Below, in pieces: positions 131 to 5,714 of a DNA stretch of 5,714 nucleotides. Numbering within the stretch: the stretch's first letter is position 1; every line of letters starts with the position of its first letter. Under the pieces are notes generated by a model that searched no databases, had not been told where the DNA came from, and saw only the letters and a program-made list of their open reading frames with translations. A program made the position numbers and the translations under genes. Source of the DNA: a virus; the IMG/VR virus record IMGVR_UViG_3300045988_000736, positions 1 through 5,714 of that record. The stretch is one strand, 5' to 3'.

Positions 131-157
131 AGCCGGGCAAAGACCCGGCTATTTTTT
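131..157 (+). terminator. Rho-independent terminator-like hairpin downstream of VP1. 7-bp GC-rich stem AGCCGGG/CCCGGCT, 6-nt loop, followed by ATTTTTTAA
   Basis: Inverted repeat 131-137/144-150 followed by T6 run 152-157, located 84 nt after the VP1 stop. Confidence 0.6.
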
Positions 158-158
158 A

Positions 159-1049
159 ATGGGTACACTTTTATCATGGATGCCGTACATCATGCAGGGG
201 CTTAGCCTGCTAACAAGCGTTGCAATGAGCTCAAACCAGAGCAGTGCAACAAGCAGTCAGAAAGCCGGAGAAGAAACAACCAGCGGAAGCGAAACAACAA
301 CCGGAAGTCTGACAGCACCACAACAAATTGGCACAACACAGATTGGAACACCAACAGGCATCACCACATACAACAATCAGGGTAGCGTAAACACGGCAAA
401 CGGCATGAGCTTTTTAAGCTCTATTATCAGTAATCTGATGAACGCAGGAAGCCAAGCAAGCGCAAAAAAGTACAACTCCGCAGAAGCAGCAGCAGAAAGA
501 GCATTCGCAAAGGAAATGCGCGGCACAGCATATCAGGACACTGTAAAGGACATGATCGCGGCGGGCATCAATCCAATACTAGCGGCAAACAACGGCGCTA
601 CAGCAACGCCAAGCGGAGCAAGTGCAAGCATCGGAACACAGCACTACAACCAGCAGAGCGCACAAGCGGCGGCAGTGTCAGCGATGTATGAATACGGCAA
701 TAACACGGCAGAGCTAGCAAACAGATACCTCGAACTAGCAAAAAAAAGCACAAGCGCAAAGCAATACCATTCTGCAAAGAGCTTTAATGAAGCAGCAAGC
801 AGTTTAGCACAATCAAGCGCAAAACAGGTAAGTAATTACAACTATGCGGCAAACAACTTGCTCGACGAGCTGGGAGACGCAGGAGACAAGCTAAGAGACG
901 CAGGAGACAAAGCAGCCGAATCAGCAAAAGGCGCAGGCAGAAAAGCAGCATCGGCCTTTAAAGACAGTTGGGAAAAAGGCGGAAAAAACATCACACCATA
1001 TCCGTCAATCAATCCTAATCAGATAATGGGCGCGTATAGAGGAGATTAA
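159..1049 (+). CDS. VP2-like minor capsid / DNA pilot protein (296 aa)
   Basis: ATG 159, long ORF directly downstream of VP1 as in gokushovirus synteny. Low-complexity A/S/Q/N/T/G-rich protein with the motif YQDTVKDMIAAGINPILAA, which resembles the conserved AG(L/I)NP region of microvirus pilot proteins. No SD directly upstream (see findings). Confidence 0.6.
   Translation: MGTLLSWMPYIMQGLSLLTSVAMSSNQSSATSSQKAGEETTSGSETTTGSLTAPQQIGTTQIGTPTGITTYNNQGSVNTANGMSFLSSIISNLMNAGSQASAKKYNSAEAAAERAFAKEMRGTAYQDTVKDMIAAGINPILAANNGATATPSGASASIGTQHYNQQSAQAAAVSAMYEYGNNTAELANRYLELAKKSTSAKQYHSAKSFNEAASSLAQSSAKQVSNYNYAANNLLDELGDAGDKLRDAGDKAAESAKGAGRKAASAFKDSWEKGGKNITPYPSINPNQIMGAYRGD
874..911 (+). repeat. Tandem ~21-bp direct repeat inside VP2 (gagacgcaggagacaa x2), encoding DAGDKLR/DAGDKAA
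   Basis: Copy 1 at 874-890, copy 2 at 895-911. Confidence 0.7.
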
Positions 1050-1225: not shown

Positions 1226-1361
1226 GCCCTACTTCTACTACTACAACAAGTAATATATAGAACAAATCAAAATAAAAGCCCTTCCGCACAAAGTTAAGGT
1301 TTCCCAGCACAGGGACACCAAAGAGAAGAGCATAAAGAATAAAAGTATGCAGAGTAGAACG

Positions 1362-1390
1362 GGGGCCGTCAAACTACCGTTGACGGCCCC
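1362..1390 (+). other. Perfect hairpin: 11-bp stem GGGGCCGTCAA/TTGACGGCCCC with 7-nt loop
   Basis: Inverted repeat 1362-1372 / 1380-1390. Confidence 0.8.
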
Positions 1391-1392
1391 TT

Positions 1393-1426
1393 TGCGACAG
1401 CGTCCCCTAGCGCGGGGACTGTCGCA
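1393..1426 (+). other. Hairpin with 13 bp (TGCGACAG[CG]TCCCC / GGGGACTGTCGCA), a 2-nt bulge and a 6-nt loop
   Basis: Inverted repeat 1393-1407 / 1414-1426. Confidence 0.75.
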
Positions 1427-1443
1427 TCGATAGATACTAATGT

Positions 1444-1482
1444 ATTGCGCGCACGCGCGCGAAACGCGCACGCGCACGCAAT
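1444..1482 (+). other. Imperfect GC-rich hairpin (15 of 18 bp, AAA loop). It is built from two 15-nt strictly alternating purine-pyrimidine (CG/CA)n tracts and is Z-DNA-prone
   Basis: ATTGCGCGCACGCGCGCG-AAA-CGCGCACGCGCACGCAAT; alternating Pu/Py 1447-1461 and 1465-1479. Confidence 0.65.
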
Positions 1483-1548
1483 TTAAATCAAAAACGAAAG
1501 AGAGGTGTCAACTGGCGCAAGATAGACAAGTAAGCTTGCGCCAAACCT

Positions 1549-2544
1549 ATGCCATGTACAAATCCGAATGTTTTCCAGATGAACACGAAAAAACCAACCA
1601 TGTGGGGAAGCCTAAACTACCTAAAGAAACAGAACCTAGAACAAACCATCATGGACGGCGTAAAAAAAGGAAACCTCGCATTATTGCCATGCGGAAAATG
1701 TGAATACTGCCGAAAACAGATAGCAGACCAATGGGCAACGAGAATAGAACTAGAGGCACAAAAATGGAAAGATGTGATTTTCGTTACAATGACCTACGAC
1801 GAAGAACACATACCATACGGCGAGATTGTAAAAGGCTATCAAAGCATCCAATCACAAACAGTAAGCAAAAGAGACGTACAACTATTTTTAAAACGTCTCA
1901 GAAAAGCATACAAAAAGCCGATAAAATACTTCATAGCAGGAGAGTACGGAGACAGAACAAAAAGACCACACTACCACGGTATTTTTTTTGGACTAAAACC
2001 AGAGGATGGAGTATGGTACAAAAACCAGAAAGGCAACGCATACTTTAAAAGCGAATGGCTCACAAACCTATGGGGAAAAGGCTTTGTAGACTTTTCACCA
2101 GCGGCACCGGGTTCATATGCATACGTGGCACAGTACGTCAATAAAAAAGCAATCGGCGCAGAGCAGAGCGCAAAATACTGGATGCAAGGCCGTGAACCAG
2201 AGTTTAGAATCATGTCAAAAGGCATCGGGGAAGAGTACCTAAAAGAGCACATGAACGAGATACTAGAAACCGACAACATCACATGTGCAGGAGGACGGCA
2301 GAAAAGACCGCCAAGATACTTTGATAAGCTTCTTGATAAGGATACCAACAAAGACACTGAAAGCTATTTTAAGGCACATTCTGACGAGCTGAGAGCGGTA
2401 AGAGCCAAAAGACGAAGAAACGCAGTGCTTAGCCTTGTAAACTTAGAGCAAAACACCAGTGTTCCATACTCAAAATACCTAGAGATACAAAAAGAAAAAG
2501 ACAAGCAAAAACAAAAGTGGAGAGAGCCAAAAGAAACCTTATAA
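1549..2544 (+). CDS. Rolling-circle replication initiation protein (Microviridae VP4 / gene A-like, 331 aa)
   Basis: Zn-finger-like PCGKCEYCR near the N-terminus. RCR motif I FVTMTYDEEH, motif II PHYHGIFFG (HUH) and motif III YVAQYVNKK (catalytic Tyr pair). The exact start is uncertain (in-frame ATGs at 1549, 1579, 1600 and 1651), and none has a canonical SD. Confidence 0.9.
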   Translation: MPCTNPNVFQMNTKKPTMWGSLNYLKKQNLEQTIMDGVKKGNLALLPCGKCEYCRKQIADQWATRIELEAQKWKDVIFVTMTYDEEHIPYGEIVKGYQSIQSQTVSKRDVQLFLKRLRKAYKKPIKYFIAGEYGDRTKRPHYHGIFFGLKPEDGVWYKNQKGNAYFKSEWLTNLWGKGFVDFSPAAPGSYAYVAQYVNKKAIGAEQSAKYWMQGREPEFRIMSKGIGEEYLKEHMNEILETDNITCAGGRQKRPPRYFDKLLDKDTNKDTESYFKAHSDELRAVRAKRRRNAVLSLVNLEQNTSVPYSKYLEIQKEKDKQKQKWREPKETL

Positions 2545-2609: not shown

Positions 2610-2638
2610 TTGACTTTTGCACACACTGACAATATAAT
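2610..2638 (+). promoter_or_regulatory. Near-consensus sigma70-type promoter: -35 TTGACT (2610-2615), 17-bp spacer, -10 TATAAT (2633-2638). Predicted TSS is about 2645
   Basis: Read directly from the sequence. Located 30 nt upstream of an AAGGAGG SD and the first gene of the small-gene/peptidase/VP1 block. Confidence 0.65.
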
Positions 2639-2928: not shown

Positions 2929-3324
2929 ATGTCACGTGAAGAATACAGCTTATTTAATCAGAGCACCCACCAAATAAGTGAACACTTCAAAGTTAGAGAA
3001 TTTGCACAAAAAGACTTCCAATGCGACAAGGTAATTGTAGACACGGAACTTATAAACGTTTTGGAAGATATACGCGCACATTTCAACAAACCTGTGATTG
3101 TAACCTCTGGATACCGGACACCGGAATACAATGCAAAAATCGGCGGTGTAAAAAACTCACAACACACAAAGGGAACAGCGGCTGATATCAAAGTATCTGA
3201 AGTTCCGGCAAGATGGATACAAAAGTATCTAAAAGACAAATATCCGAATAAATACGGCATCGGAAGTTATTTAACTTTCACACACATCGACATAAGAGCT
3301 AAAAAAGCACGTTGGAGGGGCTAA
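2929..3324 (+). CDS. Peptidase M15 family (M15_3 / VanY-like D-Ala-D-Ala or L-Ala-D-Glu peptidase fold) cell-wall hydrolase, 131 aa. Putative endolysin or entry-associated peptidoglycan hydrolase
   Basis: Motifs SGYRTPEYN, SQHTKGTAADI (His...Asp zinc ligands) and FTHIDIR (second His); SD GAGGAGGAG 5 nt upstream of ATG 2929. Confidence 0.85.
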   Translation: MSREEYSLFNQSTHQISEHFKVREFAQKDFQCDKVIVDTELINVLEDIRAHFNKPVIVTSGYRTPEYNAKIGGVKNSQHTKGTAADIKVSEVPARWIQKYLKDKYPNKYGIGSYLTFTHIDIRAKKARWRG

Positions 3325-3988: not shown

Positions 3989-4013
3989 AAGCCATTTCGC
4001 GCAAGTGCCGCGA

Positions 4014-5666
4014 ATGGAAAGACCGCGGTCAAAATTTGATCGCGGTCATCAGCTCCTGACGACCATCAACGAGGGCGAACTGGTACCAATCTATATGGAT
4101 GAAGTACTACCGGGTGACACGGCACGGGTACAGCTTAACGGGCTTATCAGAATGAGCACTCCTATCTATCCTATCATGGATAACTGTTACATGGACACAT
4201 ATTTCTTCTTTGTGCCTGCAAGACTTTTGTGGGAACACTTTGAAAATATGTTCGGTGAAAACGACACCAACTATTGGGCAGAAGATACGGAGTATTCCAC
4301 TCCAAAATGCACCATCGGCGGCACAAGCGGCCTTGCAAATGGTTCCATCGGTGACTATTTCGGACTGCCGACACAGGTAAATAACGCGCTGGAAGTAAAC
4401 GCATTGCCTGCACGAGCATACTGCAAAATCTACAACGAGTGGTTCCGAGATGAAAATCTTGAAGCGCCGCTTATGTTGGGATACAAAAAGACGGATGACG
4501 GCGGCACAAATGCAGACGCAAGCAAAGTAACCGAAAATGCAAACGCACTCGAACAGACGACCAACACCAACGAAGCAATGTTGTATGCAATGAAACCGGC
4601 AAGGGCGGGCAAGTTCCACGATTATTTTACATCTTGTCTTCCTTCACCGTTGAAAAATGCAGAACCGGTAACGCTGCCAATGACAGGAGCAGCAGGAGTA
4701 TATGCATACTCAGACAGAGAGCTAAAAAATAAAACAGAAGCAACCATAAACAGCTTTACAAACCAAACGGACTTCGCAGGAACAACGAATCAAAGGCTTT
4801 ACGACACAATCCTGTGGGCAAATGAGCCAGAACAATTATACGTAGGAAACGGAACAGCAAAAGAACAAATGTGGTTGGGCGCAGACCTGAGCAAAGTAAC
4901 CTCAACAACGATCAACGACTTGCGACAGGCCATAGCGCTGCAGCACATCTTCGAGAGCGATGCCAGAAACGGCACGAGGTACAGAGAATTCCTTTCCGGG
5001 ACGTGGGGCGTAACAAGTCCGGACAGCCGTCTGCAAATTCCTGAATACATCGGCGGGCAACGCATTGCAATCAATGTGAATCAGGTGGTGCAGACCAGCC
5101 AGACGGACACGACGACCGGACAGGCACTGGGCAACACGGCGGCATACAGCCTAACGACTTGTTCAAAGCAGATGGCAGACTATGCAGCTACGGAGTACGG
5201 CTATATCATCGGGCTGGCGGTGGTACGAGTAGAACACAGTTACCAACAGGGTCTTGGAACCAAATGGACGCGCGGCGGTCGATTCACGTACTACGACCCG
5301 AGATTAGCAGCACTAGGAGAACAGCCAGTATACAACAGAGAAATCTACGCAGACGGAAGCGAAAAAGATAGCCAGATTTTTGGCTATCAGGAGGCTTGGG
5401 CGGATTACCGATACAAGCCTTCCTACGTAACCGGAGAAATGAGGTCAAACTATCAGACGTCTTTGGATGCATGGCACTATGCAGACGACTATGACAAGCT
5501 GCCGACACTATCGGCAGAGTGGATTCAGGAAGGACGTGAAAACATCGATAGAACTATTGCGGTAACGTCCGCAGTAAGTCACCAATTCTTATGTGATTTC
5601 TGGTTCAACGAAACGTGGTACCGGGAAATGCCAATCTACAGTATCCCGGGCATCGAAAGAATTTAA
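4014..5666 (+). CDS. Major capsid protein VP1 (Microviridae F-protein family, about 550 aa)
   Basis: Conserved N-terminal region RSKFDRGHQLLTT...PIYMDEVLPGDT and DTYFFFVPARLLW, typical of gokushovirus VP1. ATG 4014 is preferred; the ORF track begins at an in-frame GTG at 4005. Stop TAA is at 5664-5666. Confidence 0.93.
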   Translation: MERPRSKFDRGHQLLTTINEGELVPIYMDEVLPGDTARVQLNGLIRMSTPIYPIMDNCYMDTYFFFVPARLLWEHFENMFGENDTNYWAEDTEYSTPKCTIGGTSGLANGSIGDYFGLPTQVNNALEVNALPARAYCKIYNEWFRDENLEAPLMLGYKKTDDGGTNADASKVTENANALEQTTNTNEAMLYAMKPARAGKFHDYFTSCLPSPLKNAEPVTLPMTGAAGVYAYSDRELKNKTEATINSFTNQTDFAGTTNQRLYDTILWANEPEQLYVGNGTAKEQMWLGADLSKVTSTTINDLRQAIALQHIFESDARNGTRYREFLSGTWGVTSPDSRLQIPEYIGGQRIAINVNQVVQTSQTDTTTGQALGNTAAYSLTTCSKQMADYAATEYGYIIGLAVVRVEHSYQQGLGTKWTRGGRFTYYDPRLAALGEQPVYNREIYADGSEKDSQIFGYQEAWADYRYKPSYVTGEMRSNYQTSLDAWHYADDYDKLPTLSAEWIQEGRENIDRTIAVTSAVSHQFLCDFWFNETWYREMPIYSIPGIERI

Positions 5667-5714
5667 AAAATGTACAAAACACACAAAAAAGAAAGCTGAA
5701 ACAACAAAAAAAAT
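5620..5714. repeat. Second copy of the 95-nt terminal repeat (identical to 1..95)
   Basis: Exact identity with window start. Confidence 0.95.

Follow-up and report, generated by a model that had tools for sequence, protein, structure and literature searches.

Why does an A-rich genome of a gut gokushovirus maintain three consecutive GC-rich hairpins in a non-coding region? The window, a stretch of 5,714 nucleotides, comprises the circular genome of this phage (5,619 nt; A 37%, T 17%), and the initial annotation had pointed to the hairpins at 1362-1482 as possible origin, primosome-assembly or packaging signals or, at the RNA level, as terminators or mRNA stabilisers. In the gut and the oceans, gokushoviruses count as some of the most abundant ssDNA phages, and we know of no cis-acting replication signal that has been mapped for them. 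Here, the hairpins are examined with respect to folding, conservation, distribution and possible function.

Results

Folding and covariation of the hairpins

All three hairpins were located as previously described, and the coordinates of their arms (Table 1) confirmed the 11 perfect base pairs of HP1 and the 13 base pairs plus bulge of HP2. The reported contrast with the rest of the genome was likewise substantiated: GC content is 63% in the hairpin region versus 46% genome-wide, and the most stable of 331 sliding 136-nt windows starts at 1361 (-67.8 versus a mean of -27.2, sd 9.0). Folding of region 1355-1490, which the initial annotation had suggested, proved strongly non-random both as ssDNA (-41.5 kcal/mol; shuffles -25.7 +/- 2.8; z -5.75; equalled by none of 200 shuffles) and as RNA (-68.3 kcal/mol; z -6.8). 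The minus strand of the same region, folded as DNA, reached -48.6 kcal/mol (z -8.2).

Pairing and covariation were scored on 21 distinct cassettes (alignment A1), with 500 shuffles as control. In this alignment 88.6% of the cells were paired, and sliding the partners reduced this value to 30-51%. Cells changed on both sides numbered 67 versus 25 in the shuffles, and the covariation score was 0.167 versus 0.081; none of the 500 shuffles reached either value. Double changes were seen at nine base pairs. Pairing is thus conserved among relatives, a point on which the initial annotation had made the relevance of the hairpins depend. HP1, HP2 and HP3 are genuine structures maintained by selection. 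The counts of G.T versus A.C cells, used as a test for the strand of function, are decisive for HP3 only (A.C n=71, G.T n=0) and mixed for HP0, HP1 and HP2, with G.T being as frequent as A.C in HP1 and HP2.

Table 1. Coordinates of the cassette, its elements and the neighbouring hairpin HP4 in the window
Feature	Position	Strand	Description
Whole optional non-coding cassette	1262..1489	+	~228 nt; A-rich lead-in, M1, HP0, A-rich spacer, HP1, HP2, spacer, HP3
M1 motif TCCGCACAAAGTTAAGGTT	1283..1301	+	19-mer; holds 2-bp mini-hairpin RC-AAA-GY
HP0	1298..1319	+	small hairpin GGT.TCCC-AGCACA-GGGA.ACC; recovered by RNAalifold
HP1	1362..1390	+	arms 1362-1372/1380-1390; 11 bp perfect, 7-nt loop, G-run/C-run closure
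TTT	1391-1393		directly 3' of HP1
TT linker HP1-HP2	1391..1392	+	junction CCCC-TT-GCG
HP2	1393..1426	+	bulged hairpin, conserved core element; 13 bp + bulge
HP2 outer stem	1393-1399/1420-1426		TGCGACA/TGTCGCA, 7 bp
HP2 bulge	1400-1401		2 nt, G1400 C1401
HP2 inner stem	1402-1407/1414-1419		GTCCCC/GGGGAC, 6 bp; loop TAGCGC
HP3	1445..1481	+	17-position hairpin; arms 1445-1461/1465-1481, loop AAA
HP4	1513..1543	+	context hairpin outside the optional cassette; preceded by AGGTGTCAAC

Elements of the cassette

HP1, HP2 and HP3 make up the 3' two-thirds of the cassette. In sequence, the most conserved part of the cassette is M1, which is near-invariant in the 21 distinct cassettes; pair 14/20 of its mini-hairpin (alignment A1) is G-C in 13, A-T in 7 and G-T in one. 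An Alpavirinae-like group carries the same 20-24 nt on the strand opposite to the genes, and the reverse complement of M1 in that group resembles the Bacteroidetes -7 promoter box. In HP0, where 98.6% of the cells are paired, a T-A pair is changed to C-G in 11 of the 21 sequences.

Changes on both sides affect four pairs of HP1. The interior of its stem differs from lineage to lineage (GTCAA/TTGAC, GCAAA/TTTGC, GCGCA/TGCGC, ACGAAAAACA/TGTTTTTCGT, TAGGCC/GGCCTA and others), although the closure by a G-run and a C-run is retained. In HP2, stem sequence, GC bulge and the CCCC-TT-GCG junction are conserved, with an invariant CTG located within the 3' arm, while the loop is free in both sequence and length (3-8 nt): TAGCGC in the clade of the window, and TAACGC, TACGC, TAGCAA, ATCC, AAGCTT or ATTCGGGT elsewhere. 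HP3 has Watson-Crick pairs at 14 of its 17 positions and C.A/A.C mismatches at the other three (1456x1470, 1453x1473, 1450x1476); its top five base pairs covary (G-C to A-T, C-G to T-A). It forms an alternating purine/pyrimidine (CG/CA) tract that is also a direct repeat, and folded as RNA its minus strand is more stable than its plus strand (-32.6 versus -21.8 kcal/mol). A different hairpin occupies the HP3 position in L059.

The cassette around the three hairpins extends beyond the interval 1362-1482 that was reported originally, and HP0 and HP4 are found a short way outside it. The stems of HP4 covary (TGGCGCAAG, CGGCACAAG, TGGCCCAAG, TAGCCAAGTTC), and its loop CAAGTAAG is retained. Likeness of HP4 to the phiX174 origin is confined to CAACT and ATAGAC.

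Presence and location of the cassette among relatives

The cassette is present in the window and, among others, in L001, L002, L006, L011, L013, L017 and L067. In six genomes with Rep proteins 96-98% identical (L005, L007, L008, L009, L012, L069) it is replaced by 25 nt (TAATATATAGAGAAAAAAGAAAGAG), and partial deletions are found in L010, L016 and L018, with L016 retaining HP3 alone. Cassette-less genomes of clade I-a possess no hairpin between VP2 and HP4. They have another GC-rich cluster after VP4, whose energy contrast is modest; L010 is devoid of both the cassette and this alternative cluster.

Across relatives the cassette occupies three alternative non-coding sites, always in the main non-coding region that adjoins Rep, HP4 and the iterons. 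At site A, represented by the window, it is located 210 nt past the VP2 stop, directly before the VP4 ribosome site. At site B, used in a clade with ~80% Rep identity, it begins at the VP2 stop codon. The alternative allele at site B is a canonical terminator (GGGGGATGG-CAAAA-CATCCCCC-T6) with a 5' flank similar to that of HP1. Every readable locus carries one allele or the other in this slot (terminator n=42, cassette n=7), and both are scattered over the Rep tree. The hairpins of L124 and L205 come after VP4, the last gene of the operon, and the L204 unit is likewise found after VP4. The cassettes of the two clades are ~70% identical, and their Rep genes share ~80% amino-acid identity. The hairpins thus belong to an optional, exchangeable non-coding cassette.

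The HP1-TT-HP2 core in other ssDNA phages

The core consists of a hairpin closed by a G-run and a C-run, the dinucleotide TT, and the bulged hairpin GCGAC NN CG C5 loop G5 CTGTCGC. Two pattern scans over 2.9 M viral contigs detected it only in ssDNA phages, namely in several microvirus lineages (group-1 gokushoviruses and the distant microviruses L125, L201 and L203) and in Xanthomonadaceae inoviruses, as prophages with Zot or Rep_trans. Further carriers in GenBank were the isolate inovirus Xf109 and three microviruses (KT264797, MG945781, MG945868). Group 1, L124, L205, L125, L201, L203 and the inoviruses all preserve the junction CCCC(Y)TTGCG(W)C. The arms of HP2 are identical in L002 and inovirus L198, the loops being unrelated, and the outer stem is swapped in L206 (GGCC/GGCC) and Xf109 (TGAC/GTCA). 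L125 carries HP1 and HP2 alone, and the Alpavirinae-like group combines M1, HP0 and HP3-like modules. In a metagenome scan with the junction pattern, every complete unit belonged to the gokushovirus group and none to non-phage bacterial contigs; judged by this distribution, the unit is apparently not a bacterial repeat.

In inoviruses the unit is located between convergent operons, with gene ends 29-51 nt and 8-136 nt away; that of Xf109 lies unannotated in the convergent ORF8/ORF9 spacer, and in L199 TATTTTGTT follows directly after HP2. The HP1 slot of the inoviruses is filled by a REP-like GTAG...CTAC hairpin (GTAGGGGCGCTGCCCCTAC), which is also present on 30 Xanthomonas plasmids. The unit is oriented with the virion/coding strand in all six gut gokushovirus-like contexts and with the complementary strand in L125, L201, L203 and all inoviruses. 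This difference is mitigated by the fact that a palindrome yields the same stems on both strands.

Comparison with known classes of elements

A scan for intrinsic terminators (at least five T in the eight nucleotides after a hairpin) listed 131-150 (followed by ATTTTTT) and none of HP1, HP2 and HP3. Their tails in the window are TTTGCGAC, ATCGATAG and TTTAAATC, respectively, and HP1 of relatives has the tail TTGCG. As stated in the initial annotation, a short T tract stands after the first hairpin only. A position directly downstream of a gene was found at site B, in L124, L205 and L204 and in the inoviruses, though not in the window.

Membership in the ssoA class was rejected with RSB being absent and CS-6 not conserved: RSB (TTATGCCGAGAAAATTT, PMC4598088) had no match with up to three mismatches anywhere in the window, and CS-6 (TAGCGT) was matched at five of six positions only, by the HP2 loop (TAGCGC) of a single clade. 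With regard to a primase start of the G4 type (5'-CTG-3'), the invariant CTG is situated inside the 3' arm of HP2 and not in ssDNA 3' of the hairpin. A G4-like primer start (CTACTG) near HP1 was also discarded: CTACTCTG on the minus strand of the window is similar but not conserved. Rfam 15 gave no match in 1050-1548 at E<=1, and ARAGORN no tRNA or tmRNA. HP1, HP2 and HP3 do not start with GTAG as REP/BIME elements do, but most clade I genomes, though not all, have GTAG 3-7 nt upstream of HP1.

Further candidates were dismissed. A XerCD dif site (for such sites see PMC7062461, PMC3091885) was not found: the consensus DBBBCSBATAATRTAYATTATGTHAANT, which is bacterial, gave 0 matches at three mismatches, and its XerD arm 0 at one mismatch. 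HP2 as a CRISPR-repeat mimic (anti-CRISPR RNA) seemed unlikely and was dropped, given the covariation of its stems from clade to clade and the presence of the unit in phages whose hosts are unrelated. An antisense promoter based on the conserved TTGACA in GTTGACACC lacks conserved -10 spacing, and a lactococcal Chi sequence (GCGCGTG) on the minus strand of HP3 is not conserved in the other clade. M1 was rejected as a host attB, tRNA or dif sequence because its seven matches in a scan of genome contigs look like chance; a reversed-M1 control gave one match in viral contigs.

Discussion

A candidate signal for complementary-strand initiation

By analogy with known systems, we tentatively favour the view that the cassette may be an exchangeable signal for initiation of the complementary strand, resembling the single-strand origins (sso) of rolling-circle plasmids and oric of phage G4. 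It would then work in single-stranded nucleic acid, through its folded hairpins, rather than as duplex DNA or as coding sequence. HP1, HP2 and HP3 would remain double-stranded on the incoming, SSB-coated virion strand and offer an entry point to a host priming machine, be it primase, the PriA primosome or RNA polymerase, and priming at the hairpins would start complementary-strand synthesis. Three hairpins serve in this way in G4 oric, as do the n' hairpin of phiX174 and plasmid sso cassettes. Like sso, the cassette would boost efficiency in particular hosts and not be indispensable, a role that would account for its polymorphism, its swapping and its sharing among phages with unrelated Rep proteins.

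Conversion of ssDNA to dsDNA is a step which both phage families leave wholly to the host. Since the phages bearing the unit have different Rep families, their common partner should therefore be a host function. Of the functions considered in the initial annotation, primosome assembly is strengthened by the detection of the core pair in ssDNA phages only. The fixed stem, bulge and junction of HP2, together with its free loop, suit a hairpin recognised by a protein; with a duplex site of fixed spacing they are incompatible. Complementary-strand signals have also been proposed for other microviruses, in the form of hairpins that lie between their capsid and Rep genes and show compensatory changes (PMC9865509).

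The likeness to G4 oric (Bullavirinae) lies in three GC-rich hairpins within ~110-120 nt of a microvirus intergenic region that lack U tracts; refolded, oric gave three hairpins in ~110 nt with -29.1 kcal/mol and z -5.1, as compared with -41.5 and -5.75 for the window. A role on SSB-coated virion ssDNA is the proposed functional parallel. The two share no sequence similarity, however, and the cassette has no conserved equivalent of CTACTG, the primer start located in G4 at the 3' foot of stem-loop I. Moreover, oric is fixed in its genome, whereas the cassette may be absent, shifts between sites and has either orientation depending on the lineage. With the sso elements (ssoA, ssoU, ssoT, ssoW) the cassette shares a structured non-coding nature (~150-250 nt), dispensability and a flexible position relative to rep (PMC5703833). 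Like the cassette, these elements are exchanged between replicons with unrelated Rep and keep short conserved sequences in divergent hairpins; they are thought to limit host range (PMC5703833).

Several observations argue against a priming function. Plasmid sso elements are strictly orientation-dependent and function in one orientation only (PMC5703833), whereas the orientation of the HP1-TT-HP2 unit varies between lineages. On the virion strand, HP3 has three to four conserved C.A mismatches; on the minus strand it would fold perfectly. The near-identical genomes without a cassette, and L010 without even the alternative cluster, imply that some other priming route must exist. Allelism with a terminator at site B and the location between convergent inovirus operons are typical of terminators, and the cassette is similar in sequence to no characterised ssi or sso.

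A bolder proposal, which we consider possible but doubtful, is that HP1-TT-HP2 represents an undescribed cis element common to Microviridae and Inoviridae: a portable bulged-hairpin module that would be read by a broadly conserved host protein, start the complementary strand in either orientation, be traded between phages and tune their host range, in the manner of a phage equivalent of the plasmid sso cassettes. If so, the cassette would give gokushoviruses a first candidate for a minus-strand origin.

Relation to other phage and bacterial hairpins

The intergenic hairpins of phiX174 serve as leaky terminators and mRNA stabilisers, and an n' PriA site is present in its F-G region. The cassette resembles these hairpins in being GC-rich, on the coding strand and, at one site, allelic with a canonical terminator; it differs from them by the absence of U tracts, by being optional and by a bulged hairpin common to inoviruses. 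To our knowledge, its sequence has no likeness to the F-G (n') region. Among the intergenic hairpins of Ff phages, hairpin A is the packaging signal and B/C the minus origin; filamentous-phage hairpins are ssDNA signals after the last assembly gene, comparable to the proposed role of the cassette. We are not aware of a packaging hairpin in microviruses. That of Xanthomonas inoviruses, which is located within gII and has the stem GGX(A)CCG(Y)G, differs in sequence from the unit described here; it is reported to be active in both orientations and thus provides a precedent for orientation-insensitive hairpin signals (bioRxiv 10.1101/2023.12.30.573655). REP/BIME elements, mobilised by RAYT/HUH proteins and present in many copies per host chromosome, are also short, GC-rich, imperfect, extragenic palindromes that are often paired and to which roles in termination and mRNA stability are ascribed. 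The unit, by contrast, is found in one copy per phage genome, with no complete unit seen in bacterial contigs. We know of no RAYT linked to it.

Alternative functions

The alternative closest to hand, which we judge only somewhat less probable, is an RNA element at a transcript end: a leaky, U-tract-poor terminator or insulator that also stabilises the 3' end of the late VP1-VP2 mRNA, or an attenuator before VP4. Such a function is suggested by site B, where the cassette, beginning at the VP2 stop, is the exact alternative allele to a canonical terminator whose 5' flank resembles that of HP1, by the hairpins after the last operon gene in L124 and L205, by the convergent-operon location in inoviruses with TATTTTGTT after HP2 in L199, by the coding-strand orientation in all gut gokushovirus-like contexts and by the stability of the RNA fold. 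Yet the U tract is missing (TTT after HP1, none after HP2 or HP3), while terminators of the same genomes carry T5-7; at site A the cassette is remote from the VP2 stop and directly precedes the VP4 ribosome site; and cassette-less clade I-a genomes manage without any hairpin between VP2 and HP4. The terminator idea of the initial annotation is weakened by the sequence downstream of the hairpins, and its idea of an RNA stabiliser keeps some probability. A plain terminator also leaves unexplained why junction, bulge and stem are conserved across phages of unrelated hosts and why they are detected only in ssDNA phages. Distinctly less probable is a selfish or neutral hairpin element spread by illegitimate recombination mediated by Rep or a HUH transposase, or by template switching, with the hairpins being kept for mobility or palindrome self-correction and the phage gaining nothing. 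Presence or absence in near-identical genomes, at least three insertion sites, both orientations across lineages and the mosaic of sub-modules (HP3 in L016; M1, HP0 and HP3-like in the Alpavirinae-like group; HP1 and HP2 in L125) are in line with this idea, as are the detection of the unit in ssDNA phages only, with DNA of the kind that HUH enzymes use as substrate, and the REP-like hairpin GTAGGGGCGCTGCCCCTAC in the inovirus HP1 slot and on plasmids. It is made less likely by the single copy per genome, by the lack of target duplication, terminal repeats or an associated transposase, and by the metagenome scan without complete units in bacterial contigs. Furthermore, the cassettes of the two clades are about as diverged as Rep, which fits long vertical persistence at fixed sites, and such persistence in a size-constrained 5.6-kb genome is hard to explain without a benefit.

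We regard as quite improbable a function of the other strand or of the duplex. The former would be a small RNA, antisense or regulatory, transcribed from the minus strand; the latter a cruciform or Z-DNA structure that depends on supercoiling and modulates the replicative form. Such a function would make sense of HP3, with its strand-biased mismatches and minus-strand fold and its direct repeat of alternating purines and pyrimidines, of the lineage-dependent orientation of the unit, and of the -7 box-like reverse complement of M1 in the Alpavirinae-like group. Group 1, however, has no conserved minus-strand promoter or terminator: TTGACA in GTTGACACC is at variable spacing to any -10 box, and no more than a 9/12 match, inside HP1, was listed. 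G.T is as frequent as A.C in HP1 and HP2, no Rfam family matches, and the loop lengths vary, unlike those of a fixed duplex protein site. All microvirus genes and transcripts known to us are on a single strand. An essential cis element, as which the initial annotation had envisaged a Rep-nicked (+) origin or a packaging signal, has become very improbable. The cassette does adjoin the Rep gene and hold the strongest structure in the genome, but it is missing from the six genomes with 96-98% identical Rep, is located elsewhere in the clade with ~80% Rep identity and in L124 and L205, and is common to phages with different Rep families; being absent or relocated among close relatives, it is therefore neither the (+) origin nor an obligatory packaging signal. 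Practically no weight can be given to a protein-coding function or an integration site of the XerCD/dif type. A minus-strand frame (1477..1241, 78 aa) is open across the cassette of the window, and dif motifs have a patchy occurrence in gokushovirus non-coding regions (PMC7062461). This frame has no Pfam match, no frame is open in all 21 cassettes, most of which contain stops and frame changes, and the loop indels are not multiples of three.

Implications

The hairpin cluster is now a defined object with boundaries, a core, a bulged hairpin, natural knock-outs and natural transplants (three sites, two orientations). Should the core be a priming signal recognised by the host, a common host-factor dependency of ssDNA phages would be identified, part of their host range explained and a portable part for ssDNA production systems made available. 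If it is a terminator or a selfish element instead, the polymorphism still records frequent recombination of non-coding cassettes among microviruses. The same polymorphism cautions against taking every conserved hairpin as an origin. HP4 with its preceding AGGTGTCAAC appears, from the sequence, to be the better candidate for the (+) origin than the cassette. AGGTGTCAAC is found in every group-1 locus that covers the sequence just upstream of VP4, and in L124 and L205 HP4 is positioned after the VP4 stop.

Structure and conservation of the hairpins

The window spans the whole circular genome of a gokushovirus (5,619 nt) plus a 95-nt terminal repeat. The exact repeat of positions 1–95 at 5620–5714 shows it to be a circle opened within the 3′ end of VP1. 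All genes are located on the + strand, and the window shares 94% identity with Gokushovirus WZ-2015a from human faeces. The three GC-rich hairpins HP1, HP2 and HP3 lie in a 499-nt non-coding region between VP2 and VP4, at the positions and with the shapes described in the initial annotation, and the reported contrast in composition is real (63% GC as compared with 46% GC and 37% A for the genome). Folding, which had been proposed there as a check, gave −41.5 kcal/mol for ssDNA (z −5.75) and −68.3 for RNA (z −6.8), values equalled by no shuffle, and the region ranks top in stability among 331 windows spanning the genome.

Features of the genome and of the hairpin cassette
Feature	Position	Strand	Remarks
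Intrinsic terminator	131-150		canonical; AGCCGGGCAAAGACCCGGCT + ATTTTTT; between VP1 and VP2
VP2	159-1049	+	
Cassette insert	1262-1489		order M1, HP0, A-rich spacer, HP1, HP2, HP3
M1	1283-1301		conserved 19-mer
HP0	1298-1319		small hairpin
HP1	1362-1390	+	11 bp, perfect
HP2	1393-1426	+	7+6 bp, GC bulge
HP3	1445-1481	+	17 positions, three C.A mismatches
HP4	1513-1521/1535-1543 (arms)		loop ATAGACAAGTAAG; within 1498-1548
VP4/Rep	1549-2544	+	
Promoter	2610-2638		sigma70-type, near-consensus, TTGACT-17-TATAAT; upstream of small basic ORF 2669-2785
M15 peptidase	2929-3324	+	
VP5, VP3		+	
VP1	4005-5666	+	

The hairpins belong to a non-coding cassette, of which 21 distinct versions were aligned. RNAalifold recovered HP0, HP1, HP2 and the top of HP3 from this alignment. 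In a five-helix model 88.6% of the cells are paired, as opposed to 30–51% when the partners are slid by 1–3 columns, and nine pairs have changed on both sides. Double-change cells number 67 versus 25 ± 5 in shuffles, and the covariation score is 0.167 versus 0.081 (0/500 shuffles in either case), although relatedness inflates figures of this kind. Since the interior of the HP1 stem differs between all lineages and its G-run/C-run closure persists, the pairing noted in the window is accompanied by compensatory changes in relatives. The 21 aligned cassettes have no conserved reading frame, and an Rfam and tRNA search of the hairpin region yielded no match.

HP3 combines an inverted with a direct repeat (17-nt period) and, owing to its alternating purines and pyrimidines (CG/CA), is prone to adopt Z-DNA. 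Its + strand mismatches in the aligned cassettes comprise 71 A.C and 0 G.T cells, with C1456xA1470 being invariant, in L124 as well; the minus strand of HP3 would pair perfectly.

An optional and modular cassette

Relatives were collected via Rep (69) and, further, via DNA patterns. In the clade of the window, the segment between ...ACAACAAGTAATATATAGA and GAAAGAGAGGTGTCAAC occurs in three forms: about 252 nt including the hairpins, 25 nt only (L005, L007, L008, L009, L012 and L069, with 96–98% identical Rep), or partially deleted (L010, L016, L018). A clade with about 80% Rep identity carries a homologous cassette, about 70% identical, at a different site, beginning at the stop codon of VP2 and preceding the TTTCAACA repeats. 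The other allele at this site is a canonical terminator (hairpin + T5-7), and one or the other fills the slot in every locus where it is readable. The two alleles are interleaved across the Rep tree, a sign of recombination. In L124 and GenBank record MG945781 the hairpins are located downstream of VP4 and HP4. Absent from some close relatives and variable in site, the cassette is modular and dispensable, and this excludes two of the roles initially considered, that of a (+) origin and that of an obligatory packaging signal.

Natural deletion derivatives (L010, L016, L018, L080) have M1 joined to half of HP3, HP3 alone, or the 5′ arm of HP1 joined to the 3′ arm of HP2. Their breakpoints within or beside hairpins suggest template switching at palindromes, or assembly artefacts. 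Cassette-less L005, L007, L008, L009 and L012 possess about 300 extra nt behind VP4, with a GC-rich hairpin cluster (GACGGAGCGCGCC..GACCGGAAAACCGGTC..GGAGCGCC..GGCGCTCC), a sigma70-like promoter, an additional ORF of 60–70 aa and a canonical terminator. Where the cassette is present, this stretch measures just 122–124 nt (2545–2668 in the window). The association may simply mark a pair of haplotypes and not compensation.

A core shared with other ssDNA phages

Two scans of 2.9 M viral contigs with an HP2 pattern (GCGAC NN CG Y CCCC - 3-10 nt - GGGG R CTGTCGC; the second, looser version adding the TT junction) matched only the gokushovirus group, three distant microviruses with confirmed Rep (L125, L201, L203) and five inovirus prophages in isolate genomes, which encode Zot and Rep_trans and are kin of phiSHP2, SMA7 and phiLf2. 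GenBank added KT264797, MG945781, MG945868 and the cultured inovirus Xf109. When the inovirus unit was compared by BLAST with all deposited phages, the top HP2 match was a human gokushovirus. The constant anatomy is [hairpin ending in C-run]-TT-GCGAC-NN-CG-C5-loop-G5-CTGTCGC. The HP2 arms of gokushovirus-group locus L002 and inovirus L198 are identical and their loops (4–8 nt) unrelated; the outer stem is swapped compensatorily (GGCC/GGCC in L206, TGAC/GTCA in Xf109), and the GC bulge is retained across lineages. Because loop length varies, HP2 works as a hairpin and not as a duplex dimer site, and the conserved stem and bulge sequence suggests recognition by a protein.

A junction-pattern search of bacterial metagenome contigs, blind to inovirus-type variants, found no complete units, which speaks against a host REP family. 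HP1-TT-HP2 lies outside every Rfam family and deposited annotation and goes unmentioned in the papers cited here; it is best filed among structured cis cassettes of ssDNA replicons, with a putative function.

In the Xanthomonadaceae inoviruses (L197-L200, L202, L208; Xf109 record 5492–5662) the unit occupies the spacer of two convergent operons, assembly (Zot side) and DUF3653/XRE regulator. A REP-like GTAGGGGCGCTGCCCCTAC fills the HP1 slot, and an exact copy of its first 25 nt is present on 30 Xanthomonas plasmids.

Possible functions

Since the element is common to phages whose Rep proteins belong to different families, and was seen in ssDNA phages only, the partner they share would most plausibly be a function of the host that is peculiar to an ssDNA life cycle. 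Complementary-strand initiation is the step that microviruses and inoviruses leave wholly to the host. We tentatively rank first, by analogy, a role of the cassette as an accessory complementary-strand initiation signal, based on the anatomy of the G4 complementary-strand origin, the behaviour of plasmid single-strand origins (sso) and a precedent in other microviruses, whose hairpins near Rep with compensatory changes were proposed for such a role (PMC9865509). The G4 origin likewise has three hairpins (refolded, −29.1 kcal/mol, z −5.1). The cassette behaves as sso do, which are non-essential, flexible in position, swapped between replicons and host-range limiting (PMC5703833). Membership in the ssoA family was rejected; the cassette lacks RSB, and CS-6 is not conserved.

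Several observations weigh against the complementary-strand model. In 6/6 gut gokushovirus-like contexts the unit is carried by the coding/virion strand, and in L125, L201, L203 and all inoviruses by the opposite one, whereas plasmid sso do not tolerate inversion. Its palindromic stems are, however, the same on either strand, and Xanthomonas inovirus packaging hairpins were reported to function in both orientations (bioRxiv 10.1101/2023.12.30.573655). The perfect minus-strand pairing of HP3 is a further objection; this asymmetry also fits a window lineage that carries the cassette inverted relative to others. It is the main support for duplex or antisense functions, which we regard as highly improbable. 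A selfish recombining hairpin element would agree with the patchy distribution and both orientations, but is at odds with one copy per genome and long persistence at fixed sites, and appears unlikely. Also unfavourable to complementary-strand initiation is the terminator-like position, at the VP2 stop and between the convergent inovirus operons. An RNA-level role as a leaky terminator, insulator or stabiliser is somewhat less likely than the complementary-strand signal: the hairpins are without the U tracts that genuine terminators in these genomes have, and detection in ssDNA phages only would be left unexplained. The terminator or stabiliser function initially suggested is thereby weakened, though kept as the second reading.

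Neighbouring elements

Nine exact TTTCAACA repeats (0.43 expected) are present on the + strand at 1052–1215, and also at 1217–1226, in two clusters flanking a small hairpin; in relatives they are accompanied by TGTGGAAAA (= TTTTCCACA, DnaA-box-like). In L124 and MG945781 the entire block and the CTACTAC run have the opposite orientation with respect to the genes, so that the block probably functions in duplex form, as iterons or as a regulatory region.

HP4 is preceded by a conserved AGGTGTCAAC in every locus of the gokushovirus group that covers the sequence directly upstream of VP4. Its stems vary compensatorily and the loop CAAGTAAG is retained. In the window it lies between the SD-like GAGAGGTG and the VP4 ATG, 43 nt apart, and in L124 and MG945781 behind the VP4 stop; by virtue of this second location HP4 counts as a separate cis element, and it is a candidate for the (+) origin. 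It resembles the phiX174 origin in CAACT...ATAGAC only.

Strong Shine-Dalgarno sites ahead of the genes and the sigma70-type promoter make a Bacteroidetes host unlikely for the window phage. M1 was also found in 28 contigs of an Alpavirinae-like microvirus group (6.3–8.3 kb, lacking SD sites), where it reads on the strand complementary to the genes; a reversed motif as control gave 1 match. M1 is accompanied there (L074-L114, e.g. L091 3600–3860) by two hairpins, an adjacent GGTTT...AAACC and a (YR)n one. Its reverse complement, TTTG-N16-TAGCTTTG, resembles a Bacteroidetes promoter, and the flanking hairpin + ATTTTATTTT before and hairpin + T8 about 130 nt after it suggest a possible small RNA gene.
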